From NCBI GenBank assembly GCA_964491475.1, contig CAZBFO010000004.1:3290-67289 (forward strand): a stretch of 64,000 nt of DNA, written 5' to 3'. This DNA comes from an uncultured Gammaproteobacteria bacterium (GTDB taxonomy: Bacteria > Patescibacteriota > Patescibacteriia > SG8-24). Position 1 is the stretch's first letter. The number at the start of each line of letters is the position of its first letter. Of this stretch, positions 3,130-46,045 are shown piece by piece. The position numbers and the translations under genes were made by a program. The notes beneath the pieces are model-generated. The model did no database searches and had not been told where the DNA came from. It saw nothing but the letters and a program-made list of their open reading frames with translations.

Positions 3130-3999
3130 TTTGTCCGTTTTCTCCACGTGCGCTTCATCCTTCCCGACAACCACGCGGACGCTACCGTCCTTGTCGGTCC
3201 GGTACGCCTTGGCACCGACCGCCCGTAAGCGTAACAGCGTGACCGGCGCAGGGTGGCCGAACTTGTTCTTCGCGCCAAGCGACATGATCGCTTCCTGCGG
3301 ACGCACCGCGCGAAGAAACTCCGGAGAGCTGGAGGTGCGGCTCCCGTGATGTCCGACCTTCAGCACGTCGGCCGCCAATGGCACCCCAGATGACAGAAGC
3401 GCTTTCTCGACCGCTGCCGTGGCGTCGCCCATAAGCAGGATGGCGGCGCGTGCGGAAGACGCCTTCTCTGCCGTCACGCGCAGCACGACCGATTCGGTGT
3501 TGGCGTCCTTGGTGATGACTTCCGGAAAACGTCGGTTGGGCCAGAGCACGTCGGCACGTCCGCAGCCGGAGACGTCGATGCTGTCGCCGTCGTGCACGAC
3601 GGACGTCTGCGCTCCTGACGCGCGAACGGCAGCCAGAAGCGCCCGGTATTCCGGCGTGTCGGATGCCCCCCCGGAAGTGTAGAAGTGCAGCACGCGATAG
3701 CGCCCGAACACGCCGATGAGCCCGAAGTAATGGTCGGCGTGCGGATGGGTGAGCACGACTGCCTCGATGGTGCGGTCGAAGAACGGCATGGCCTGCCCAA
3801 GCCGGGAAAGCACGGTGTCGTCCGGCCCGCCGTCGACCAGAAGTTGCCGGTTGCCGCATTGCAGCAGAATGGCGTCGCCTTGGCCGACGTCAAACACGGT
3901 GGCGGTGAACCTACGGTCGGGCAGGACAAGGACGGCGAGCAGCGCCAGCGCTGCCGCTACGATCACGAGACGAATTGCGAAGATGATGTTGCGTTTCAT
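3127..3999 (-). CDS. comEC: ComEC C-terminal metallo-beta-lactamase-fold domain protein
   Basis: starts MKRNIIFAIRLVIVAAALALLAVLVL (TM helix) then MBL motifs ...DVGQGDAILLQ..., THPHADHYFG, KVGHHGS; ATG (cat 3997-3999) overlaps stop (tca 3996-3998) of the upstream comEC ORF. Confidence 0.8.
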   Translation of the reverse strand: MKRNIIFAIRLVIVAAALALLAVLVLPDRRFTATVFDVGQGDAILLQCGNRQLLVDGGPDDTVLSRLGQAMPFFDRTIEAVVLTHPHADHYFGLIGVFGRYRVLHFYTSGGASDTPEYRALLAAVRASGAQTSVVHDGDSIDVSGCGRADVLWPNRRFPEVITKDANTESVVLRVTAEKASSARAAILLMGDATAAVEKALLSSGVPLAADVLKVGHHGSRTSSSPEFLRAVRPQEAIMSLGAKNKFGHPAPVTLLRLRAVGAKAYRTDKDGSVRVVVGKDEAHVEKTDK

Positions 4000-5576
4000 A
4001 GTTCCCGTTTGCGCAGCGCAAGCCGCAATAAGATAAGTATCGCCGCCATCGCCAAAGATTCGGCAGCGGTCGTTTGGAGATGCATCGGCGGCATCAGCGC
4101 CGCGCCGGTCGCGGCGAAGAAGCGCATCGCCTTCGTGGCCGCTGCCGTCGCCAACGCGAAGGGCAGTCCGAGCGGCGACCACAGTGCCCCCAATGCCAGG
4201 GTCAGCGCACCTGTCGCCGTGGCCAAAGGCACCAGCGGCACGATCAGCATGTTCACCGGCAATGCCGCGATCGGGAGCAAGCCAAAATCGTGCAGCTCGA
4301 TGGGCAACGTGGCGACCGTCGCCGACAAAGTCTCCGCGCAGGCGGAACGGATGCCGAAAGATTCCGGCAGCCAACCGAGACGCTTGGCAAACGGTTTTCC
4401 GAAGGCACGCATGCCGACCACCGCCGCAAAGGACAGCCTGAAGCCGACGTCGCTCGCGGCGGCAAGCGGATCCAGCGCCAGCATTACCGCCGCGACCAGC
4501 AAAAGCGGCTGCCAGCCGGCATTGCGGCGCCCAAGCAGCGAAGCCGCCACGGCCGCGCCGCCCATCAGCGCGGCGCGAACCGCAGGGGCGCCTGCACCGG
4601 ACAGCAGCGCGAATACGGTCACGAACGCCGCCACCGCGACCGCCGCCGACTTCCGCCGCAAAAGGCAGAACGCGAACAGGCCAAAGGCGAAGTTGGCCAC
4701 GAGCGACACGTTGTAGCCGGACACTGCCAGCACATGCGACGTGCCCGTGGCGCGAAAGTCGCCCACGACCTCTCGCGGCACGCCGCCGGTGTCACCGATG
4801 AGCAGGCCCAGTACGAACGACGCGTCAGGTTCGGGAATCAGCCCATAGATGACGGAGCGAATGCCGTTTTTGAAACCCAGCAGCCCGTTTGCGAAGCCGT
4901 TGCGGCCCTGCGCCGTGACCGTCGGCGGCGACCGCGGAGCGCAGTGCCAAACGTTTGGCACACCTCGGGCGGCCGTCATTCCCTCCTGCGGAAATACCTT
5001 GCAGGTCCAGGTCAGTACGTCGCCGATTGCGGCATCTGGAGCGCGTGACAGGGTCAGTGCGAATTCGCCGTCCACGCTTTTGCGGCCGCCGGCGTATCCT
5101 TGCCCGAATGCGCCCGCATCGGGAAAAACGAAAACGCGATCCATCACGATGGTCGCGCCCTTGACCGTCAATTTCGGTTCCCGTGCAAGACGGCCCTCGT
5201 ATCGTGCCTGCCAACGCGGCGGTTCCGTCGCCGAACCTGGGGCGGAAACGGATGCGTCGAACCGGGCGACCCCTGCAGTTGCTGCGGCAATCAGCAAAAT
5301 CGGGAATCGTACCCTCGGCATGCCTCGCCAAACCGCTGCGGTTGCGAACAGCGCCAGCGCCGCGGGACCGAGCATTTCCGGCACGCTCCATCGCCTGACG
5401 TCCCAACTGTGCAGCAACACGGCCGCAACGAAGGCCGAAGCGGTCAGCAGCAGCGTTTTTGACGGCGAGGCGGAGAGACGGTCGTAGGTGGCGGGCATAG
5501 CCGCCACCGCATACCATGCCGCCGGAAAAACATGCAAGCGCAACAAAAAAGCCCCGCGTGTTGCGGGGCTCGCCAT
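3996..5576 (-). CDS. comEC: ComEC N-terminal part (DUF4131/OB-fold plus competence membrane domain)
   Basis: contains hallmark ComEC competence-domain motifs ...GLLIGDTGGVP... and ...GTSHVLAVSGYNVSLV... within a polytopic membrane region; start trimmed to MASPATRG (5576), alternative MPATYDRL (5498); ORF track extends spuriously to 6215. Confidence 0.7.
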   Translation of the reverse strand: MASPATRGAFLLRLHVFPAAWYAVAAMPATYDRLSASPSKTLLLTASAFVAAVLLHSWDVRRWSVPEMLGPAALALFATAAVWRGMPRVRFPILLIAAATAGVARFDASVSAPGSATEPPRWQARYEGRLAREPKLTVKGATIVMDRVFVFPDAGAFGQGYAGGRKSVDGEFALTLSRAPDAAIGDVLTWTCKVFPQEGMTAARGVPNVWHCAPRSPPTVTAQGRNGFANGLLGFKNGIRSVIYGLIPEPDASFVLGLLIGDTGGVPREVVGDFRATGTSHVLAVSGYNVSLVANFAFGLFAFCLLRRKSAAVAVAAFVTVFALLSGAGAPAVRAALMGGAAVAASLLGRRNAGWQPLLLVAAVMLALDPLAAASDVGFRLSFAAVVGMRAFGKPFAKRLGWLPESFGIRSACAETLSATVATLPIELHDFGLLPIAALPVNMLIVPLVPLATATGALTLALGALWSPLGLPFALATAAATKAMRFFAATGAALMPPMHLQTTAAESLAMAAILILLRLALRKREL

Positions 5577-5578
5577 GG

Positions 5579-6010
5579 TCAGCGCGGCGAAGATGAGCTG
5601 GGTGCCGCTGCCGGAGAACCGGGCAGGACATATTCGCCGCGCGCGGGATCGTAGGCGCGCGTGCGAATTGCCGTGCAAGTCTCGCGGGTCAGGCCGACCT
5701 CGCGGTAGGCGGTCTCCCAGTCGCCGCCCATCACCTGAACCCGATTGTACATGTTGGAGAGATGGACCAGATGGCCGCTGCGCTCGCTGGTCCAGTAGAT
5801 GCCGTCCGAGTGCTCCTCGTTGGAGATCGAGACGTTGTGCAGCTCCCAGCAGCGAAACGGCTTGCCGGTGTTGTCCATCTGGACGACGACCCAGTCGGCG
5901 CCGAAGCTCTGCGCGCTGCATGACGAGCAGTCGCGCTGAAATCCCGCGCAGCCGACGAGCAGAAGGCCGAACACTACGGTGCCCAGGCGGGAAATGAACG
6001 GTTTTTTCAC
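5579..6010 (-). CDS. hypothetical lipoprotein
   Basis: GTG start (cac 6008-6010) preceded by GGAGAA SD; N-terminus VKKPFISRLGTVVFGLLLVGC with lipobox LLVGC; Cys-containing ~120-aa mature domain. Confidence 0.5.
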   Translation of the reverse strand: MKKPFISRLGTVVFGLLLVGCAGFQRDCSSCSAQSFGADWVVVQMDNTGKPFRCWELHNVSISNEEHSDGIYWTSERSGHLVHLSNMYNRVQVMGGDWETAYREVGLTRETCTAIRTRAYDPARGEYVLPGSPAAAPSSSSPR

Positions 6011-6117
6011 GATGTTCTCCTTGTGACGCGGCGCATCCCTCCTTGATGAGGAAAGCTGCCGGACACGAGAAGCTACCAAGAAAAGGCGCTTCCGTCAAGA
6101 CCCGCAGGACCGCAACG

Positions 6118-6495
6118 TCAGAAATGTCGCGGCGGCGCATGGCGCGCAGGCGGCACATGCCTGCGTGACGGCGGCGAGTAATGGTGGCGATGATGCCACG
6201 GCGGCGGATAGCCATGGCGATACCCCCAGGTAATGCCCGGCCGATGCACGTAGACGCCGCCGGTGTAGACGTAGTAGCCGTAGTACGGACCGGTCACCCA
6301 ACGGCAGTTCGGGTACCAGATGCCGTCGGCCCAGCAGCCGCCGTCGGGGTAGGTGTAGACGTAGCCGGGCGTGACCACGTAGACCGGGCGCGGCGGTTCC
6401 GGTTCGACCACGATGCTCGAGGTTTCCGAGACGAGGCAGCCGGCCGAAAGCACGGCCAAAGCCGCAAAAAGGAGTACTGGCGAAAGGCTTCTCAT
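6118..6495 (-). CDS. small Tyr/Gly/Pro/His-rich lipoprotein
   Basis: MRSLSPVLLFAALAVLSAGC lipobox; mature part is low-complexity (YVVTPGYVYTYPDGG..., GPYYGYYVYTGGVYVH, HHRHHY); GGAGG SD 8 nt upstream of ATG. Confidence 0.5.
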   Translation of the reverse strand: MRSLSPVLLFAALAVLSAGCLVSETSSIVVEPEPPRPVYVVTPGYVYTYPDGGCWADGIWYPNCRWVTGPYYGYYVYTGGVYVHRPGITWGYRHGYPPPWHHRHHYSPPSRRHVPPARHAPPRHF

Positions 6496-36360: not shown

Positions 36361-36684
36361 ATGTGGCCGTTCAAAAAGACGGACGAACATTCTCTCATCC
36401 TGCACAAGCTCCTGCTTGTCCTGTCGGTTCTGACCCTTGCCTCCAGCCTGCTGGTGCTGTTCAAGGTGAAGCTGCTGCTCAAGGAAGAAATGAATATCCG
36501 GGACTCGGTCTCCCAGCTCCAAGCGAACATGCAGCAGCTGGGCGGCAAGATCAACGCCGCCGAACGACGCACCATGCAGGACCGCATGATGCAGCCGATG
36601 CCCATGAACCAGGCCGGCTTTCCCGAAAGGATCGCGCCGACGCCGGCTCCCGCGCCGGCTCCGGTTCCGTCGGCTAAAAAGTAG
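36361..36684 (+). CDS. small membrane-anchored hypothetical protein
   Basis: MWPFKKTDEHSLILHKLLLVLSVLTLASSLLVLF TM then coiled-coil and Pro/Ala-rich tail; ATG at 36361. Confidence 0.4.
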   Translation: MWPFKKTDEHSLILHKLLLVLSVLTLASSLLVLFKVKLLLKEEMNIRDSVSQLQANMQQLGGKINAAERRTMQDRMMQPMPMNQAGFPERIAPTPAPAPAPVPSAKK

Positions 36685-36690
36685 GAATCG

Positions 36691-36716
36691 AAAAACGCCC
36701 GGTCGGGCGTTTTTCT
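36691..36716. terminator. bidirectional rho-independent terminator
   Basis: stem cgccc / gggcg with ggtc loop, A-run upstream, T-run downstream; between convergent 36361..36684 (+) and 36720..36923 (-). Confidence 0.55.
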
Positions 36717-36719
36717 TTA

Positions 36720-36923
36720 TCAGCGGACGAAACGCGTCACTCTTCGCATCTGCATGATCTGCCGGTCGGTGGCTACCGCCACGTAGATGGCGACGCCCAA
36801 CGTGACGACGATGCCCACGACGATGAACGCTTCGATGAACGTGATGCCGCCGCGCAACTCCCCGGCATATGGCGAGTGCGGTGGCGCACGTTTATGCAAG
36901 TCTCCGCGACGGATGATGGACAT
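36720..36923 (-). CDS. pilin-like mini-protein (class III signal-peptide-like: G-ITFIE then hydrophobic helix)
   Basis: 67 aa; MSIIRRGDLHKRAPPHSPYAGELRGG | ITFIEAFIVVGIVVTLGVAIYVAV…; Glu at +5 after Gly-Gly, followed by 20-residue hydrophobic helix as in type IV/Flp prepilins; 6 nt after stop of upstream 509-aa gene. Confidence 0.35.
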   Translation of the reverse strand: MSIIRRGDLHKRAPPHSPYAGELRGGITFIEAFIVVGIVVTLGVAIYVAVATDRQIMQMRRVTRFVR

Positions 36924-36929
36924 CTGGCA

Positions 36930-38459
36930 TCAGTTCCGGATGACGGGGGCTTCTACGCGCACCTCGGCCGTTCCGGCGGTAATGTCGTAAGCCTGGACGG
37001 TATAGATGTAGCTACCGAAGCCGTAATCGGCGGCGTTCAGGGTCGGCGGCAGCGCCTCGGAGAGTGCCTTGTCGAGCAGCGGCGCGAAGCTCTTTTCCGG
37101 GACCACCAAGGCACGGAAGCGCAACGAGAGCGTCAGGGCAAAGGTGGCACCGGACGTACCGACCTTGGGCGCGGTCACGGCGAGCTCCTTCGAGGTGATC
37201 ATGTCGGGGTTGGTCTTTTCGCCGGCAGCGAGCATCGCGGCGAAATTGTCGATTGCCTCTTTGCGCAACTTGTCAGTCAGCGAGGCCTTGGCGGCGTCGA
37301 TGTCGGATTGCGATACGCCGGGTCCGTTGCCCGCGCCGCCCGTCATGGGCGCGTCGCTCTTGGCGGTAATCTGCTTCTGGAGCGCGGGAGACAGGCCGGG
37401 AATTGTGAAGGTCGTCGGACCCAAGTCCCCTTCAGCACCGGGCTGATCCGCATGGACGTTTACCGTCACCGAACCGTTGGCCGGAATCGGAGTAGTCGCG
37501 TTCATTCGGAACAGGACGCCTTCCTTGGAAAGCAGGCGCGTGGTGGCGACGAAGGTGTACTCCTTGGCGGTGGTGTTGACGATGGTCGCCTTGCCGGTCG
37601 ACTTGTCGACCTTGGATGAGGCCGTGCCGGTGGCGGGGAAGGTGCCGCCGGCCTTGCCGTCAGACTCGATCATCCGGGAGGTGATGAACTCCTTGGCGCC
37701 GGGCGTGGCGGGCGCAGCCGTTCCCACCAGCGCGGTAACCGACACGGAAGCGGGCGCCTTCGGTCCGGCGGGAACGTGCTTGGCGACTTGGTTCTGCGCG
37801 CCGGTCGACGGCCTCTTCAGGAACGAGGCGAACGATGGCAGGCCCGACTTTGCCAGGAACATGTACACGCCACCGGCCGCCGCCACGAACAGGACCAGCA
37901 CCAGCACGGCCAAGGCGAAGGTCTTCAGGCCCGAGCGCCGCGACTGCCCGTCGTCGCGATCCATATACGACATCTCGTCATCCCCCTCCTCTTCGGCCAT
38001 CGCCGCGCGCTTCGGCAGGGTGTCGCCGCGCAAGATCGAATCGATCGAAAGGCGCCCGTCGTCGCCGCCGAGAGAGGGCGCGTCGTTGATTTCCCGCGTC
38101 GCCATCTTCGATTTGAGATTCTCGTCGGAACGAAGAATTTCGCCAATCCCCAATCCGAAGTCCGGCTCGTCGCCCTGCTCCGAGCGATCCTGGAAGGCCT
38201 CAAGACGTTTGGCTGCCGCCGCCTTCTTGGCGGCTTCTTGTGCCGAATCCGTGGCCGCCTTCGCGAAGGCAGTCGGCTCCAATGCCGCGCGCTTCGGCCG
38301 CGCTTCTTCTTCGCGGGTCTCGGCAATCGGCTCCGCGTAGGAGGGAATCTCTACCGCCGGCGCCTCGTGCGGCATCTCGGCGGCGGTCATCTCGGCGGCG
38401 GGCTCCTCGACGCGAGTCCGTTTCTTTCGCGATGCTGGTTTTTTGGCTTGCGCGACCAT
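36930..38459 (-). CDS. single-pass membrane protein, charged low-complexity cytoplasmic N-terminus, ~300-aa extracytoplasmic domain
   Basis: 509 aa; residues ~1-180 Ala/Glu/Lys/Asp-rich; TM LKTFALAVLVLVLFVAAAGGVYMFL; extracellular region Thr/Ala/Gly-rich then mixed. Confidence 0.5.
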   Translation of the reverse strand: MVAQAKKPASRKKRTRVEEPAAEMTAAEMPHEAPAVEIPSYAEPIAETREEEARPKRAALEPTAFAKAATDSAQEAAKKAAAAKRLEAFQDRSEQGDEPDFGLGIGEILRSDENLKSKMATREINDAPSLGGDDGRLSIDSILRGDTLPKRAAMAEEEGDDEMSYMDRDDGQSRRSGLKTFALAVLVLVLFVAAAGGVYMFLAKSGLPSFASFLKRPSTGAQNQVAKHVPAGPKAPASVSVTALVGTAAPATPGAKEFITSRMIESDGKAGGTFPATGTASSKVDKSTGKATIVNTTAKEYTFVATTRLLSKEGVLFRMNATTPIPANGSVTVNVHADQPGAEGDLGPTTFTIPGLSPALQKQITAKSDAPMTGGAGNGPGVSQSDIDAAKASLTDKLRKEAIDNFAAMLAAGEKTNPDMITSKELAVTAPKVGTSGATFALTLSLRFRALVVPEKSFAPLLDKALSEALPPTLNAADYGFGSYIYTVQAYDITAGTAEVRVEAPVIRN

Positions 38460-38533
38460 AGTGATGAAGAGGTTACGCCGCTTTCGCCTATCGTCATGTG
38501 CTCCGTAAATAAGGCGGCAGCAGCTTCACAGCC

Positions 38534-38545
38534 AATATACCACAC
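38534..38545 (-). promoter_or_regulatory. candidate extended -10 promoter for 509-aa gene
   Basis: minus strand reads gTGtGGTATATTgg (TG-n-TATATT). Confidence 0.3.
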
Positions 38546-38571
38546 TATGGGAGGGGTCTGCCATCAGAACG

Positions 38572-38603
38572 GAAAAGGGCCTCGCGTGATGACGCGAGAC
38601 CCC
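38572..38603 (-). terminator. rho-independent terminator after response-regulator gene
   Basis: minus-strand hairpin ggggtctcgcg-tcatca-cgcgaggccc followed by UUUUCC. Confidence 0.5.
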
Positions 38604-38626
38604 TGTAACGCCATTTGCCCGGCTGC

Positions 38627-39040
38627 CTACCTCCCCTTTGACATCTGCCCTTTGCCCAGCACCTTGCGAACTTCCTCGATGATGCGGCTGGGGGTCAGGT
38701 TCGCCTTCGTAAGAAAACATTCGGCACCGAGCGCGAGTCCGCGCTTTACTTCGTACGGCTGCCCGAGGTTGGAGAGGATGATGACCGGTATGTTCGCCGT
38801 GCGCGGATTGGCCTTCAGGTCCTTCAGCACCTCGAAGCCGTCCTTGATGGGCAGCACGACGTCAAGCAGGATCAACGACGGCTGACCCTGGATCGCCTTG
38901 TCGAGCCCTTCAATGCCGTCGGCCGCCTGCATCACCTCGAAGCCCTCGATATCCAGCTTGGTGGCGTAGATGTCGCGCAACGACGGTTCATCCTCGATGA
39001 CCAGGATGGTCTGTTTGTTCTTCATGTCACGGTTTTCCAT
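38627..39040 (-). CDS. stand-alone response regulator receiver (CheY-like)
   Basis: ILVIEDEPSLRD…LILLDVVLP…(phospho-acceptor Asp)…VIILSNLG…K; no output domain; 4 nt after sensor kinase stop. Confidence 0.85.
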   Translation of the reverse strand: MENRDMKNKQTILVIEDEPSLRDIYATKLDIEGFEVMQAADGIEGLDKAIQGQPSLILLDVVLPIKDGFEVLKDLKANPRTANIPVIILSNLGQPYEVKRGLALGAECFLTKANLTPSRIIEEVRKVLGKGQMSKGR

Positions 39041-39043
39041 AGG

Positions 39044-41602
39044 TCATGCGTTAACGACGGCAATGCCGTTCTCTGGCGATTGATCGTCTTCTGTCGGGAA
39101 GCTCACCGCAACTGTCGTGCCCACTCCCTCCCGGGATTCGATGGTGATGCGGCCGCCGTGCAGTTCCACCAGGCGCTTGGCCATGTAGAGACCGAGGCCC
39201 GTGCCTTCGACCTCGAAGCCGGTGATGTTCGTCGCCCGGAAGAAGCGCGTGAAGATGCGTTTGGTATCCTCTGCGGGAATGCCGATGCCGCTGTCTTTGA
39301 CGATCACCTTCACGAAACCGCCCTTCTTGCCGTCGTGCCGGACCGCCATCTCCTGACTCACGCGAATCTCCACGAAGCCCTTGGGAAGCGTGTATTTTAC
39401 CGCGTTCGTCACCAAGTTCAGCAGCACCTTCTCCACGTAGACCGCATCTGCCGAGACTTTGGGCGCAGGCTCGGCGGGCCGAGCCCATTTCAGCTCGACA
39501 CCCTTCTTTCGCGCCTCGACCGCCACCTGTCCGGCGACCGCGTCGACGACATCCTCGAGGGCTACGGGAGCCTTGTGCAGCGCCACGCGACCGCGGTCGA
39601 TGAGCATGACGTCCTGCAGGTCCCTGAACAGGTTGCTCAACCGCTGGCTGGTCTGGTGCAGGCGCTCGATCAGCTCCATCTGCTCCTTGTTGAGCCGGCC
39701 CGTGTCGCCGAACCGCATGGCGTCCAGCGTCCAGCGGAAGACGTTCAGCGGGACCCGCAGCTCTCGCGTGGCGTGATCGAGGAAGTCATGCCGTTCCCTT
39801 ACTGCCGCCCGCAGGGCCTGGGTGCGCTCGCCGATCGCCTCGAGCATGTGGTTAAAGGCGGAGGCGAGCTGCCCGACTTCGTCCGGACTGCCGTACTTGA
39901 CCCGGTGGTCGTATTCTTCGCGCTCCACCTTGACAGCGGCGGTGCGAAGTTCGCGAATCGGCCGCAACGTGACCGTCATGCTGAACAGCAGCAGCGCCGT
40001 TATCAGCATGACCGCGAACAGCGTGAGAAGAGCGACCAGCGAAATGATGCGGAACGCCTCCGCATCGAGCGTCCGGTTGGCGACGACCGTGTAAAAGTAG
40101 CCATGCGCCTCACCATCGGAGTCGAAGGTGCGCTCAAGGAAAAAGCTGTTTTCGCCGTCGTCGTAAAAACTGATGCCTCCGGGAAGCACGTGATAACGCA
40201 ATTGGTCCCGAACCGAGCTGTCGACGGCAGGTCCCGCGGAGAAGACGGCGTCCCCGCTGTCCGAGACATAACCGTAGCCTGACGAGCTGATGGGGGCCAC
40301 GGACAGGTATTCGTTGAAATTGAAGGCCGAATCGACGTCGGTGACGATGGCCGCGCCGCGGACGGACCCGTCCGAGGACATGATGGGCTCGGCGGCACGA
40401 AGCACCCAGAGGCCGAACGCGTCATCCTTTTCGATCGAGGCATGCCCCCTGCCGGACAAGGCACGCGCGATGGCGTGCGAGTCGACGAGAAAGCCTCCGA
40501 TGGCGGCGTCTGCGCGAGTGGAGAAAAGGATACGACTGTCACGGTCGACGAGATCGAATACCCGCGTACCATGCACGGGACTGGCCAACTCGTTCAGTTC
40601 CGCCCGCAAGACGGGCACGTCCTCCTTGACGCCCCCCAGCACCGACACCGTCCTGGACATTTCCGCAAAGCGATTGGCTTCGTCAATTTGAGCGAACTGC
40701 CGCAACTTGACCGCTTGGACGAAATACCGCAGGTCGCGCTGCATCGCCACGTGGCGAGCGTTCATGGTGCCCTCCACGAACGACGAGGCGATGACGGCCA
40801 GCATGCCGATGGACAGCAGCCAGATGGCGATGACGTTCATCCCAACCGCTTTGAGCATCAGGCTCTTGCGGAACAGGACGTACGGCCGCAGCCGAACCGC
40901 CTTTTCGGGGTGATCCTCGGTCAGAGCCGCCATGAAGGTCAGGAAAAGGAACGCCAGGTAAGCCGCCATGGACGGGACCACCAACGACGCGGTCTGCAGC
41001 ACCACGGCCAAGATCACCATCAGGTTGAAAAGCATGCCGAAGAGCCCCGCGTTCAGCATCATGCGGTCTGCCGGACCCTGACGTTCACCGACGCCCCGCA
41101 GGCGCGCAAGCGCCGACGACCTGCGTATGACCATGCCCAGCAAGGCGAAAAAGAGCGGCGAGTAGATGACGCACAGCTGCCAAGCCGTGTAGAAGATGAA
41201 GGTCACGCCGTTTGCCTGCGTGGCCATCGGCTTCATGGCCACAAGCATGCAGATGCTGCTCGCGGCAAGGACAGCGGTGCATCCGGTCATCAGCCACCAC
41301 AGGTCCTTCTTGTATCGGCTGAAGTACGCCGCGGCGAGAAAGACCCCTCCCACCGAAGTGAACGCGGAAGACATGCGCAGAGCATCGATGGCCGTCTGGT
41401 CATGCCCGTTTGCCGCCAAGACCTGGCCGCCGAAAGTCGTGGCTGCCGCGAACGCTTGCGTCAAAAAAGCCAAGGAATAAAAAAGGAGCGACCGGGTACG
41501 GCGCACCGCATATTCCTTGGCAAGAACGGCAAAAGCGATGACGGAAACGACCGTCAACGTCATCTCAAAAAAAACGGTGCCGATGGTCGAAAACACAGGC
41601 AT
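39044..41602 (-). CDS. sensor histidine kinase with large multi-TM N-terminal sensor domain
   Basis: 852 aa; ~8 N-terminal TM helices, periplasmic/cytoplasmic linker, HisKA (HATRELRVPLNVF, phospho-His), HATPase_c (N-box LNLVTNAVKYT, G-boxes DSGIGIP, GTGLGL). Confidence 0.85.
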   Translation of the reverse strand: MPVFSTIGTVFFEMTLTVVSVIAFAVLAKEYAVRRTRSLLFYSLAFLTQAFAAATTFGGQVLAANGHDQTAIDALRMSSAFTSVGGVFLAAAYFSRYKKDLWWLMTGCTAVLAASSICMLVAMKPMATQANGVTFIFYTAWQLCVIYSPLFFALLGMVIRRSSALARLRGVGERQGPADRMMLNAGLFGMLFNLMVILAVVLQTASLVVPSMAAYLAFLFLTFMAALTEDHPEKAVRLRPYVLFRKSLMLKAVGMNVIAIWLLSIGMLAVIASSFVEGTMNARHVAMQRDLRYFVQAVKLRQFAQIDEANRFAEMSRTVSVLGGVKEDVPVLRAELNELASPVHGTRVFDLVDRDSRILFSTRADAAIGGFLVDSHAIARALSGRGHASIEKDDAFGLWVLRAAEPIMSSDGSVRGAAIVTDVDSAFNFNEYLSVAPISSSGYGYVSDSGDAVFSAGPAVDSSVRDQLRYHVLPGGISFYDDGENSFFLERTFDSDGEAHGYFYTVVANRTLDAEAFRIISLVALLTLFAVMLITALLLFSMTVTLRPIRELRTAAVKVEREEYDHRVKYGSPDEVGQLASAFNHMLEAIGERTQALRAAVRERHDFLDHATRELRVPLNVFRWTLDAMRFGDTGRLNKEQMELIERLHQTSQRLSNLFRDLQDVMLIDRGRVALHKAPVALEDVVDAVAGQVAVEARKKGVELKWARPAEPAPKVSADAVYVEKVLLNLVTNAVKYTLPKGFVEIRVSQEMAVRHDGKKGGFVKVIVKDSGIGIPAEDTKRIFTRFFRATNITGFEVEGTGLGLYMAKRLVELHGGRITIESREGVGTTVAVSFPTEDDQSPENGIAVVNA

Positions 41603-41754: not shown

Positions 41755-41830
41755 TGGTGGATTGGCTGGGGATCGAACCCAGGACCAAACGCTTAAGAGG
41801 CGCTTGCTCTACCAGCTGAGCTACCAATCC
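41755..41830 (-). tRNA. tRNA-Lys (anticodon CUU), CCA encoded
   Basis: reverse complement folds as cloverleaf: acceptor GGATTGG/CCAATCC, D-arm GCTC/GAGC, anticodon stem AGCGC/GCGTT loop CTCTTAA (CUU), T-arm CCTGG-TTCGATC-CCCAG, discriminator A, genomic CCA. Confidence 0.9.
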
Positions 41831-41928
41831 TCGCTTCCGGTCACTTTTTATTGAGTAGCGGCATCGTAGCAAAAGATATGGGACCTGACAAGTCCCCTGG
41901 AGCCGCCTTTCTTTCCCTGCAGGCCGCA

Positions 41929-41957
41929 TTGACCGCCGGTCAGTTTTGTGCTACTTT
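41929..41957 (+). promoter_or_regulatory. candidate sigma70-like promoter of first FGE-family gene
   Basis: TTGACC - 17 nt - TACTTT, ~55 nt upstream of ATG 42013 which has GGAGGG SD. Confidence 0.4.
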
Positions 41958-42012
41958 GGATGGTCGCGAACCGCGATTTCGGCGCGACAACGGGAAGCGG
42001 AGGGTTGTAGCA

Positions 42013-43026
42013 ATGCGAACGCGAAATCTGCTCATTTTCTGCGTTTTTACGGCGTTTTTGACTGGATCGTGTACCTGCAAGAAGTACGGCGGCCTCGAGC
42101 CTGCCAGCGTCGGAAATGACGGCGTCACGGATGCGGGGGCGCCGATCGGCACGACCGATGCGCGGTCCCTTTCCGATCCCCAACGGACGGAAGTCGCGGC
42201 TACGGCCGTGACGGGACGCAAGTACTCCCCCTCCTGTCCGGAGGGAATGAAGGAAGTGTCCGGAGACTACTGCAAAACCGTAGAGCACCGTTGCCTCAAG
42301 GGCCGCGACGCGATCTTCGTCCCTGACGAGGACCATCCTGGCGGTCTCTACGTTCAGAAGACCATCCCTTGGTCTTGCAACAAGGCCGAAGGATGTCCCG
42401 TCCCCTACTACTGCGACAAGTTCGTGGAAGGGTACGCCATCTGCGGCGGCGACGCCAAATCGCTGCGGTTCTGCATCGACGAGTACGAGTACCCCAACGT
42501 CATCGGCCAAAAGCCGGCGGTGATGGTGACCTGGTACGATGCGAAGCAGGCATGTGCCGACGCCGGCAAGCGGCTCTGCGACGACGACGAGTGGGGTCTG
42601 GCCTGCGAAGGTCCGGACCACGTTCCCTACGGCTACGGCTGGGAGCGTGACGCCACCGCCTGCAACATCGACAGGCCGCAGAAAGAGGGCGGCGTGAACA
42701 CCGACGCCCTCGGTTCGTCTGTCGCCGCCGTACGCGAGGCCGAACTCGCCCGGCTCGACCAGCGGGCGCCCATCGGCTCGTTCCCGCGATGCGTGTCGCC
42801 GTACGGAGTACACGACATGACGGGAAACGTGGACGAGTGGGCCAACAACGTCACTCGCGGCGGAAAGCCGTACCGGTCCATCTTCGCCGGCGGCCACTGG
42901 GTCGGCGGCAAGGACGGCGGGGCGCGCAACCGCTGCCGCCCGCGCACGGACAGCCACAGCGAAGGCTTCCGGTTCTATGCCGAAGGCTTCCGCTGCTGCG
43001 CCGACGCCAAGCAGTCCGTGCGCTGA
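42013..43026 (+). CDS. FGE-sulfatase (formylglycine-generating enzyme/SUMF1-like) family lipoprotein
   Basis: trimmed to MRTRNLLIFCVFTAFLTGSC (lipobox); FGE-domain motifs WYDAKQACADAGKRLCDDDEWGLAC, HDMTGNVDEW, GFRCCAD; many Cys. Confidence 0.75.
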   Translation: MRTRNLLIFCVFTAFLTGSCTCKKYGGLEPASVGNDGVTDAGAPIGTTDARSLSDPQRTEVAATAVTGRKYSPSCPEGMKEVSGDYCKTVEHRCLKGRDAIFVPDEDHPGGLYVQKTIPWSCNKAEGCPVPYYCDKFVEGYAICGGDAKSLRFCIDEYEYPNVIGQKPAVMVTWYDAKQACADAGKRLCDDDEWGLACEGPDHVPYGYGWERDATACNIDRPQKEGGVNTDALGSSVAAVREAELARLDQRAPIGSFPRCVSPYGVHDMTGNVDEWANNVTRGGKPYRSIFAGGHWVGGKDGGARNRCRPRTDSHSEGFRFYAEGFRCCADAKQSVR

Positions 43027-43124: not shown

Positions 43125-44009
43125 TCACTTGGCTTCGGAACAGCAGCGGAAGCCGACCTGGATGCCGGAGTAGGTCTTGTCGTGTTCCGTGGTGGTCGCC
43201 TCGGTGCCGCAGCGGTTGCGGAGGTTCCCCCACCAGCCGCCCTTGAGCCAGCTGCCGCCGTTCGCGCTGCCGTCGGACGAGACCCACTCGTCGACGTTGC
43301 CGGTCATGTCGTGGACGCCGAAGGCGCTCACGCATCCGGAATACTCGCCCGACGGCTTGGAGAAGTTGACGCACGCCTGCCCCTTGATGGGCGCCGGCGT
43401 GCGACCGTATCCCTGCGCGGCGGCGTCGGCCCAGCGCGGCTCTTTGCCGCCCAGGTCGATGCGGCAGGCTTGGCTGTTGCGTTCGGTGCCGTACGGGTAC
43501 GGCTGCCACTTCGGCCCTTGGCAGGCGAAGGTCCACTCGTCGGCGGCGCACAGCCGCTTGCCCTGATCGTGACAGAGCTTCTGGGCTTCGCCCCAGAGGA
43601 CCATCACCTTCGGCGCCTCGCCCGGCTTGTTCGGGTACTCGTAGGCGTCGATGCAGTAGTGCTTCTGGACCGTCGCGCCCTTGCAGGTGCTGGCGGAGAA
43701 ACGCTTGCAGCGGAAGTGGTCGTCAGCGGCCATCCACTCGGCGCAGGTCTCCTTGAGATCGGGACAGTAGGTGCCGCTGATCTCGACCATGTCCGACGGA
43801 CACTTCCCGGAGACGGGCTGTTGCGCCGCCGGAGCCGGATCGGCGGCGACGGTCGCCGGTTCTGCCGGCCGTTCGTTCGTGACGGGTTCGGGAGAACGCG
43901 TCTCGACGGCGGTCTGCGACGCGTCCGCAGGCGGGCTGGTGGGGCTCGAGTGGTTGCAAGCAGCGGCGATGAACAGCGTTGCGGGAATGAGCGGAAGGAC
44001 CTTTCGCAT
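43125..44009 (-). CDS. FGE-sulfatase family lipoprotein (paralog, convergent)
   Basis: trimmed to MRKVLPLIPATLFIAAAC (lipobox); Pro/Ala-rich linker; motifs VLWGEAQKLCHDQGKRLCAADEWTFAC, HDMTGNVDEW, GFRCCSEAK. Confidence 0.75.
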   Translation of the reverse strand: MRKVLPLIPATLFIAAACNHSSPTSPPADASQTAVETRSPEPVTNERPAEPATVAADPAPAAQQPVSGKCPSDMVEISGTYCPDLKETCAEWMAADDHFRCKRFSASTCKGATVQKHYCIDAYEYPNKPGEAPKVMVLWGEAQKLCHDQGKRLCAADEWTFACQGPKWQPYPYGTERNSQACRIDLGGKEPRWADAAAQGYGRTPAPIKGQACVNFSKPSGEYSGCVSAFGVHDMTGNVDEWVSSDGSANGGSWLKGGWWGNLRNRCGTEATTTEHDKTYSGIQVGFRCCSEAK

Positions 44010-44127
44010 TCGGACTCCTTTCACGAGTGCCGTTTAACCCTGCGCAAAAAGGACGGTTTTGGCAAGGGTCTGCCCCAGGCCTTCCGAAAAGGACAAAAAA
44101 CCTCGCAGAAACGCGAGGTTGCGAGGA

Positions 44128-44823: not shown

Positions 44824-44898
44824 TGGTGCGGGCGGAGGGATTCGAACCCCCAAAAGCAGCTTCGAAGGCTGCCGTGATATCCATTTCACCACGCCCGC
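44824..44898 (-). tRNA. tRNA-Arg (anticodon UCG), CCA encoded
   Basis: reverse complement: acceptor GCGGGCG/CGCCCGC, D-arm GTGA/TCAC, anticodon stem GCAGC/GCTGC loop CTTCGAA (UCG), 4-nt variable loop, T-arm GGGGG-TTCGAAT-CCCTC, discriminator A, CCA. Confidence 0.9.
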
Positions 44899-44965: not shown

Positions 44966-46045
44966 TTACTTGTTCTTGCCATTGGAGCTGGTGGCGCCTT
45001 CGTTCAGCACGTAATGCTCGGCCACTTCGGCCTCGACGATGCCGTTCTTCACCAAGTGGTCCAAATCCTGCTCAAAGGTGGTCATGCCCTTGCCGGCAGA
45101 AGTCTGCAGCACGTTCACGATCTGGGCCGCCTTGTTTTCGCGGATGAGGTTGGCGACCGCAGAATTGTTGACCAGGATTTCGCGGGCAGCGACGCGACCG
45201 CCGCCGATCTTGGGGAGCAGCTGCTGCGAAATGACGCCGCGGAGCGTCAGTGCCAGCTGGGTGCGGATCTGGTTCTGCTGGTGCGACGGGAAGGCGTCGA
45301 TGAGGCGATTGATGGTCTGCGAGGCGCTGTAGGTGTGCAGCGTGGCGAACACCAAGTGGCCGGTCTCGGCGATGGTCAGGGTGGTGGCGATGGTATCCAT
45401 GTCGCGCATTTCGCCGACCATGACGACGTCGGGGTCCTGGCGCAGGATGTGCTTCAAGGCGTCCGGGAAGGAGATGAAGTCCTGTCCGAACTGGCGCTGG
45501 CGAATGACGGCCTTCTTGGCCTCGAAGATGAACTCGATCGGGTCTTCGAGCGTGATGATGTTGACCGGCTCGCGCATGTTGATGGCGTTGACCATCGAGG
45601 CGAGAGCGGTTGACTTGCCGGAACCGGTCGGACCGGTGACCAGCACCAGGCCGTGCGGAAACTCGGTCATCGCCTGGGCGCTCGGAGGCAGGCCCAGCGA
45701 GCTCATGCTTGGAATGTCGGACGGGATGGTGCGTGCGGCCATGGCCACGTTGCGCCGCTCCCAGTGCACGTTGATGCGAAAGCGCTTGCCTGTCGGAATC
45801 TGATAGGCCACGTCGAGCTCCTTCTGCTCCATGAACACCCGCTTTTCCTGTTCGGTAATGAAGGAGAACACCAGCTCCTCGACGTTCTGGTTGGTGAGCG
45901 CCTTGGCGCCCTCGATGGGCACCAAGTCGCCATTAAGGCGGAGCAGCGGCGGGCGGCCGACCACAAGATGAATGTCGGACGCCCCCTTGGCGACCGCAAT
46001 CTCAAACAAAGTGTTCATCACGTCGAGCGGTGTGCTTGCTGCCAT
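44966..46045 (-). CDS. pilT: type IV pilus retraction ATPase PilT
   Basis: 359 aa; Walker A GPTGSGKST, Asp box, Walker B DVVMVGEMRD, His box TLHT, PilT-specific AIRNLIRE-like motif (AVANLIRENK). Confidence 0.9.
   Translation of the reverse strand: MAASTPLDVMNTLFEIAVAKGASDIHLVVGRPPLLRLNGDLVPIEGAKALTNQNVEELVFSFITEQEKRVFMEQKELDVAYQIPTGKRFRINVHWERRNVAMAARTIPSDIPSMSSLGLPPSAQAMTEFPHGLVLVTGPTGSGKSTALASMVNAINMREPVNIITLEDPIEFIFEAKKAVIRQRQFGQDFISFPDALKHILRQDPDVVMVGEMRDMDTIATTLTIAETGHLVFATLHTYSASQTINRLIDAFPSHQQNQIRTQLALTLRGVISQQLLPKIGGGRVAAREILVNNSAVANLIRENKAAQIVNVLQTSAGKGMTTFEQDLDHLVKNGIVEAEVAEHYVLNEGATSSNGKNK

Follow-up and report, generated by a model that had tools for sequence, protein, structure and literature searches.

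The window analysed here is a stretch of 64,000 nucleotides from contig CAZBFO010000004.1 of a patescibacterial genome assembly (GCA_964491475.1). The locus of interest (positions 36,720 to 41,602) holds four open reading frames (ORFs), all on the minus strand and all confirmed at the coordinates given below, which encode a two-component system, a 509-residue membrane protein and a 67-residue protein that resembles a prepilin. In our reading, to which we give a probability of about 0.6, this is a reduced type IV pilus cluster of Patescibacteria (Parcubacteria group) in which the last two genes still serve a pilus machine encoded elsewhere. A first-pass annotation, made from the sequence alone, had described a histidine kinase with a large sensor domain of several membrane segments, a stand-alone receiver, a terminator and an extended -10 element behind it, a single-pass protein with a charged head and a Thr/Ala-rich ectodomain, and a small ORF six nucleotides further on; all of these descriptions held. 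The features of the locus, together with the pilus motor gene of the window, are as follows.

39044-41602, minus strand: sensor histidine kinase, 852 amino acids (Pfam and NCBIfam matches, hydropathy scan)
38627-39040, minus strand: stand-alone receiver-domain response regulator, 137 amino acids (Pfam Response_reg)
38570-38604, minus strand: intrinsic terminator after the response regulator gene, a 13-bp stem and then UUUUCC (RNA folding)
38534-38542, minus strand: extended -10 element TGgTATATT for the two-gene unit (sequence reading and alignment of upstream regions)
36930-38459, minus strand: 509-amino-acid bitopic membrane protein (alignment to PilM fusions, AlphaFold, Foldseek)
36720-36923, minus strand: 67-amino-acid mini-prepilin (orthologues; dN/dS, the ratio of nonsynonymous to synonymous divergence; hhalign; codon score)
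36690-36715, minus strand: intrinsic terminator closing the two-gene unit, made of an A-tract, a GC stem and a T-tract (RNA folding)
44966-46045, minus strand: PilT retraction ATPase, 359 amino acids (TIGR01420)

On comparative evidence, the 67-residue ORF is a real gene that has been kept by purifying selection. Orthologues of 65-67 residues begin 4-6 bases past the 503-515-residue counterpart of the membrane protein gene in L003, L005/L004 and L008 (related loci and proteins are numbered with the prefixes L and P), and each is followed by the gene for prolyl-tRNA synthetase (ProRS), with an intervening convergent gene in L003 and L008 and none called in L004/L005. At synonymous divergences (dS) of 0.97-1.31, the small gene has a dN/dS of 0.22-0.40 over four lineages, and the large gene one of 0.15-0.19 (Nei-Gojobori method in both cases). 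Codon usage points the same way: the GC content at third codon positions is 0.79, and of the six frames this one alone has a positive codon log-odds score (+22.6). These results bear on the idea that both genes are decaying leftovers of a deleted pilus cluster and that the small ORF is an accidental hydrophobic frame. Decay would agree with a large deletion relative to related clusters, with the loss of the globular pilin domain and with the last ~15 residues of the small protein, which evolve almost neutrally. Nevertheless, frame and length have been held in four lineages over a dS of about 1 with both genes under selection, the promoter and the terminator are conserved, and coding-like codon usage is confined to this frame. 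We consider decay very improbable, and the chance hydrophobic ORF that the first-pass annotation had allowed for is ruled out by conservation and purifying selection.

The encoded protein has a basic leader of 26 residues (MSIIRRGDLH...RGG), a predicted cleavage site between G26 and I27, and 41 remaining residues that amount to helix alpha1 only. Its signal, RGG↓ITFIE followed by a hydrophobic run (the arrow marks the predicted cleavage site), is the sole class III-like motif in the six frames of the window, for which the expected count is 0.01 (200 second-order Markov simulations). Residues 32-50, with a hydropathy of 2.74, have the character of an alpha1-N segment. Across the four orthologues, Gly at -1 (G26) and Glu at +5 (E31) are invariant, as are F29 (+3), I30 (+4) and several positions of the helix. 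When the mini-pilins were compared by hhalign with the family of pilins encoded at the syntenic position, 44 columns could be aligned without gaps, from the end of the leader to about residue 40 of the mature part, at a probability of 97.9% (E = 3.3e-13). Because of this profile-profile match, the protein is read as a pilin cut to its leader and alpha1. The pilin-like nature and the class III signal proposed in the first pass are thereby upheld, and its mature length of about 42 residues compares with 41 for cleavage after G26.

In at least 14 more distant relatives, the homologue of the membrane protein gene is followed by one or more canonical pilin genes (KG↓FTLIELLIVIGIIGFLAAA(I/V)LVAVDPVKRIQD ... 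NRIEIGAC.PEQ..I.VKR), and in L006 the syntenic position is taken by a full-length pilin of 206 residues with the atypical signal KS↓ISAVD. The globular domain that such pilins have at the C terminus is absent from the 67-residue protein, which ends 41 residues past the cleavage site, and tblastn with pilins found none elsewhere in the window; full pilins match there over their N-terminal 35 residues only. When 1.84 billion representatives were searched exhaustively with a profile, four true mini-pilin members only came back, and a word-indexed homologue search with the 67-residue protein returned itself and one orthologue. A further candidate from the profile search, the 3077-residue repeat protein P0125, was rejected on inspection as spurious. 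Beside canonical pilins there is repeatedly a paralogue whose class III signal is degenerate, with Asp at +5, with Ser at -1 or with no site that can be recognised, for instance at L092:4457-5047, L006:11547-12167 and L014:11313-11858; it is this paralogue that the mini-pilin resembles most.

Size alone would also suit a pilin of Flp/Tad type whose Tad system lies at another place in the genome, since the mature part is similarly small and consists of a helix only, and the leader is long; a likeness to Flp pilins had been suggested in the first pass. However, residue +6 is Ala or Leu, and not Tyr, in 4/4 orthologues, no match to the Flp_Fap family appears even at E values up to 10, and Tad genes are absent from the window. 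The relatives are instead FTLIE-type pilins of a cluster with PilB, PilC and PilM. The likeness to Flp was thus dropped in favour of derivation by truncation from a type IVa-style FTLIE pilin, and a Tad-type identity is hardly credible.

The larger partner has a head in which 38% of residues are charged (residues 1-175), a single transmembrane (TM) helix (residues 180-198 in the hydropathy scan, 176-204 as delimited in the domain layout) and an ectodomain with 15% Ala and 11% Thr. In an AlphaFold model based on a 99-sequence alignment, residues 1-175 are disordered, and the predicted local distance difference test score exceeds 95 for residues 238-509, which form a Baseplate_J-like beta domain, a long helix (residues 384-409) and an alpha/beta domain. 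The cytoplasmic linker retains two conserved motifs, EPDFGLGIGEIL and LSIDSIL.

Alignment identifies this protein as the post-PilM half of a Patescibacteria PilM fusion protein. It aligns over its full length to residues 381-882 of the 882-residue fusion P0013 with 45% identity, and PilM_2/FtsA domains are present in 19 of 120 homologues among the matches listed, the fused proteins being ~690-890 residues long. The homologues all come from Patescibacteria-type genomes and metagenomes, and a scan of a species-representative genome collection, seeded by a 28-sequence alignment, found relatives at 355 places. In that alignment, the 12 fused proteins examined all keep an invariant Met at the junction (S-M-V-T-x-x-K-K; L002:11141 and the equivalent position in P0005-P0035). 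The window protein starts at this very Met, as do 9 of the 16 stand-alone forms, the rest of which start elsewhere or are truncated. It may be that the invariant junction Met of the fused genes is an internal translation start giving both isoforms.

Just after the PilM domain, and upstream of the junction Met, the fusions carry the sequence ...GLALRA...SPG(L/M)N(L/F)LP. Its NLLP motif is one that we take to resemble the PilM-binding N terminus of PilN, and no paper was found for an INLLP motif. The 509-residue protein has neither a PilM domain (Pfam search) nor the NLLP motif (alignment with the fusions); what it has of PilN, when compared on the (I)NLLP motif and the membrane segment, is the single TM helix. 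Moreover, the 167-nt spacer between the response regulator gene and the 509-residue gene, translated in frame, contains no recognisable PilM remnant.

For the ectodomain, the top Foldseek matches in the PDB are phage baseplate wedge proteins (phi812, A-1(L), Mu gp47, Pa193 and phiCD508), with E values of 1.5e-5 to 1e-3 over ~100 residues (roughly 286-376) and a root-mean-square deviation of ~3 Å. For the Pfam family Baseplate_J (PF04865), the score of 20.6 bits falls just short of the gathering threshold of 21.1, and several homologues do carry a precomputed Baseplate_J match. For the C-terminal alpha/beta domain, Foldseek found no match in the PDB. The first-pass annotation had raised a pilus-associated ectodomain of PilO, PilN or FimV type. 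The association with pili is supported by the PilM fusions and by the full clusters in which they lie, and the fold or family is not, given the missing NLLP motif, the missing PDB match and the baseplate-type central domain.

The clusters of relatives suggest how the locus arose. In L002, a HAMP/HisKA/HATPase_c kinase of 851 residues heads a full pilus cluster and is followed by two response regulators, PilB, PilC, four minor-pilin-like genes, the PilM fusion, a 98-residue gene and three N_methyl pilins. The order in L014 and L022 is PilB, PilC, further genes, the fusion of PilM with the ectodomain, pilins and ProRS, and in L010, L012, L020 and L021 it is fusion, pilins and ProRS. The window has kinase, response regulator, ectodomain gene, mini-pilin, convergent gene and ProRS. 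From these orders, the ancestral layout would have been kinase, two response regulators, pilB, pilC, four minor pilins, the pilM fusion, one to three major pilins and proS. Because both flanks are anchored (kinase and response regulator on one side, proS on the other), ~10 kb can be said to be missing, from the second response regulator through the PilM domain. Several fused clusters encode a small one-TM protein with the motif K(W/F)ATAL.GF.AG...PW after the PilM fusion and ahead of the first pilin (L002:12703-12999, L011:11265-11663, L019:1670-1903 and L022:11172-11495); it is absent from the window.

In a neighbor-joining tree of the ectodomain, the stand-alone clade of the window is sister to one fused clade, more fused clades lie outside this pair, and stand-alone forms occur at several places. 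Given this topology, the fused state is the likelier ancestral one and splitting has been recurrent, with the limit that the tree is crude and that some 'stand-alone' entries, such as P0004, are truncated gene calls. The sister clade L100-L102 has kinase, response regulator and a 503-residue gene, behind which the end of the contig interrupts an ORF that starts with MPIATHGHDREHPRVHGQLPVLEAFIVLGI....

The 509-residue and 67-residue genes form their own transcription unit, with an extended -10 element in front, near-abutting genes (the small ORF starts 6 nt past the stop codon of the large one) and a strong terminator behind. When the upstream regions are aligned, the window, L003, L005 and L100 all share the element TGGTATA(T/G)T, which is accompanied by a weak -35. 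The terminator that separates this promoter from the response regulator gene has a folding energy of -27.9 kcal/mol (z = -4.27), and none of 200 shuffled sequences was equally stable. The one 3' of the small ORF has -17.9 kcal/mol (z = -4.51), is probably bidirectional and has an equivalent hairpin behind the orthologous gene in L003. A consensus promoter/terminator scanner listed neither hairpin, nor the TGgTATATT promoter. A 107-residue ORF (36361-36684, plus strand) runs towards the terminator of the mini-pilin gene from the other side. Its membrane-anchored product (MWPF...) has a single TM helix and a tail rich in Pro and Ala; it is conserved in L003, in L008 and, with 142 residues, in L006, and has no family match.

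Upstream of this unit, the kinase has HAMP, HisKA and HATPase_c domains above threshold and a weak dCache match (Pfam/NCBIfam). Its first 275 residues contain 6-7 hydrophobic segments, a weakly dCache-like extracytoplasmic region spans residues ~276-521, and one TM helix follows at 522-540 (hydropathy scan). The response regulator is a receiver only (Pfam Response_reg, E = 8e-20, residues 12-124), so the NtrC-type sigma-54 activator output of a PilS-PilR pair is not present. It is 67% identical to the first of the two receivers that precede pilB in L002. In L005, only the last 33 codons of the kinase gene are retained. In the nzgw371 metagenome-assembled genome (GCA_023246195.1; L004/L009:1888-2094), there is no receiver gene, and the kinase is followed by the 503-residue gene and the mini-pilin. 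A tRNA-Lys(ctt) gene (41755-41830, minus strand) lies directly upstream of the kinase gene.

By analogy with pilins that are sensed within the membrane, the mini-pilin might be a membrane-resident signalling ligand that tunes the adjacent kinase by helix-helix contact, after which the receiver would set pilus activity. An orthologous kinase does lie upstream of the 503-515-residue gene wherever the mini-pilin lineage has upstream DNA (window, L003, L004/L009) and also in the sister clade (L100, L101 and L102). In addition, the part of the pilin that has been retained is exactly the alpha1-N segment, and the invariant leader suggests a role beyond export. However, a strong terminator separates the kinase and receiver genes from the mini-pilin unit, L004/L009 lost the receiver yet kept the mini-pilin, and the kinase is unlike PilS in its extra Cache-like domain and HAMP and in having a receiver-only partner. 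We hold this explanation to be unlikely. Slightly less likely still is a version in which the 41-residue membrane peptide no longer builds fibres and is a dedicated kinase ligand, as in a hard-wired form of PilA-PilS or PilA-PleC sensing; the 509-residue protein would then be an envelope component with a Baseplate_J-like ectodomain, not described before and spread across the candidate phyla radiation (CPR), that replaces PilN/PilO and can work detached from PilM.

Regarding the pilus machinery itself, pilT is the sole motor gene in the window (TIGR01420, 427.9 bits against a cutoff of 319; E = 3e-128). In L006, L015 and L016, PilT is likewise encoded upstream of stand-alone homologues, in synteny with the window locus. 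When PilB, PilC, the PilM domain, minor pilins and pilins of a relative were used in tblastn, none of these was found elsewhere in the window; the presence of pilT and the absence of pilB and pilC had already been noted in the first pass. A canonical KG↓FTLIE pilin has been kept in L015-L018, which are other stand-alone lineages, with no pilB, pilC or pilM nearby; this and the intact pilT of the window speak for assembly machinery encoded elsewhere. Far from the locus, at ~3996-6215 (minus strand), the window also holds a gene for a ComEC-like DNA-uptake channel (Pfam Competence), with an adjoining Lactamase_B gene call. A pilus or competence apparatus in the organism would fit with this gene and pilT sharing one window, and the ComEC-like gene, too, counts in favour of machinery at another place in the genome. 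Between pilT and the kinase gene, there are two proteins with FGE-sulfatase (formylglycine-generating enzyme, SUMF1-like) domains (41851-43026, plus strand, and 43125-44024, minus strand), a pair that is likewise syntenic with pilT in L006. A tRNA-Arg(tcg) gene (44824-44898, minus strand) lies between pilT and a MOSC gene; because of its position, the 284-residue MOSC ORF call must be over-extended.

The absence of assembly genes from the 64 kb invites another explanation, namely exaptation, in which, after the loss of pilB, pilC and pilM, the Baseplate_J-like protein and a small uncleaved membrane partner would act at the surface or in contact with a host and would take no part in pilus assembly. 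It would also account for the loss of the NLLP motif, for the conserved leader, for the N_methyl score below threshold and for the occurrence of the family, in many Patescibacteria, as ~380-residue stand-alone proteins without pilins nearby. By contrast, Gly-1 and Glu+5, which are key to prepilin processing and assembly, have stayed invariant across a dS of ~1, pilT is retained, and even the distant ~380-residue subfamily is often found directly after a PilB-like ATPase. Exaptation thus seems rather unlikely. In AT-rich Patescibacteria, this distant subfamily is encoded right after the PilB-like ATPase with neither pilins nor PilM nearby (L055:7862-10849 and L071:7823-10849).

The homology, the synteny, the transcription signals and the selection that maintains both genes are results of the analysis; the function that we propose for the locus as a reduced pilus cluster goes beyond them. 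The 509-residue protein would supply the pilus assembly platform with an extracellular module anchored in the membrane, and would now do so without covalent PilM. The mini-prepilin would insert with its N terminus inside and its C terminus outside, would probably be processed behind Gly26 by a prepilin peptidase whose gene lies elsewhere, and could then become a helix-only subunit of either the pilus core or the platform. The kinase and the single-domain receiver, as members of the ancestral cluster, would tune the pilus machinery by protein contact and not by transcription.

Several observations weigh against this account. The 26-residue leader is long, and its start (36894-36923, minus strand) is invariant as MSIIR(R/H)GD(L/F)H across the four orthologues, three of which have RGD; this is unusual for a disposable leader peptide. 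The mini-pilin of the window has no match to N_methyl (PF07963) or TIGR02532 at E values up to 10, and the best orthologue, P0123, scores 16.0 bits for N_methyl, below the cutoff of 21.2, although the canonical pilin of L002 passes both models (32.9 bits against 21.2 and 27.5 against 16.3, respectively). With PilM and NLLP both missing from the 509-residue protein, its coupling to the cytoplasmic machinery is hard to account for, and a stand-alone PilM close to the fused ones was not found either in a metagenome scan, which gave 8 loci, the three close ones all being fused. A homologue search with the PilM domain carries no weight here: it was saturated with remote PilMs and missed even those fused relatives that were already known. 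Furthermore, Foldseek detects no PilN or PilO structural similarity for the ectodomain in the PDB. Finally, neither the 64 kb nor the ~2.8 kb past its high-coordinate end holds a pilB, pilC, pilM, prepilin peptidase or second pilin gene, and the ~0.4 kb beyond the other end is also devoid of pilus genes. That the organism has a working pilus is therefore a hypothesis.

Type IV pili are believed to serve the ultrasmall CPR bacteria in host attachment and DNA uptake, and the envelope-spanning parts of these machines are poorly defined. The Baseplate_J-like ectodomain family, which is found fused to PilM, beside PilB or before pilins, may be the missing outer part of the pilus platform of CPR bacteria. 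The PilM fusion appears to have been split or trimmed repeatedly, and in one small clade the adjacent pilin has in addition been cut to a 41-residue helix that is still under selection, so that about the size of a Tad pilin has been reached from a type IVa ancestor. The mini-pilin may thus be a natural minimal pilin with which to ask what a helix-only subunit does, be it as fibre core, assembly modulator or kinase ligand.

Among known systems, the closest analogue of the mini-pilin is PilA-N of Geobacter and other Desulfuromonadales. Both are type IVa-style proteins made of a leader and alpha1, derive from a full-length pilin and are encoded beside a two-component system (PMC5174107). PilA-N (GSU1496), however, has 61 mature residues, and next to its gene there is always one for PilA-C (GSU1497), which carries the globular part (PMC5174107), whereas the mini-pilin has 41 mature residues, is directly followed by a terminator, and is accompanied by no PilA-C-like sequence in the window. 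It also differs in its 26-residue leader with an invariant start and in its receiver-only response regulator.

For the 509-residue protein, the comparison is with PilM-PilN. The fused relatives combine both topologies in one chain, that is, PilM (PF11104), NLLP, a linker, one TM helix and an extracytoplasmic domain, while the window protein lacks PilM and NLLP and has a disordered linker of ~180 residues and a Baseplate_J-like ectodomain. In cultivated Saccharibacteria, PilM, PilN and PilO are separate (PMC11623550). With baseplate wedge protein J, it has one beta domain in common (a near-threshold sequence match and the fold), but it is membrane-anchored and cellular, comes from pilus clusters and has no phage tail genes nearby. 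Within the library searched, there was no paper that links baseplate J, pilM and the fusion, nor one that describes the fusion or its Baseplate_J-like domain.

As for Flp/Tad pilins, the very small helix-only subunit and the long leader are common to both, in contrast to the G/XXXXEY motif, which the mini-pilin lacks, and to its descent, which can be traced to FTLIE-type pilins. Lastly, in Caulobacter crescentus 17 mature PilA residues suffice to signal via TM1 of PleC (PMC7196804), and intramembrane sensing of PilA by PilS in Pseudomonas aeruginosa is cited in the same paper. The window shares with PilA-PilS and PilA-PleC a pilus-cluster kinase with a membrane sensor beside a protein that is essentially the alpha1-N of a pilin; it differs from PilA-PilS in that its response regulator lacks the NtrC-type output of PilR and its kinase has an added Cache-like domain and HAMP.

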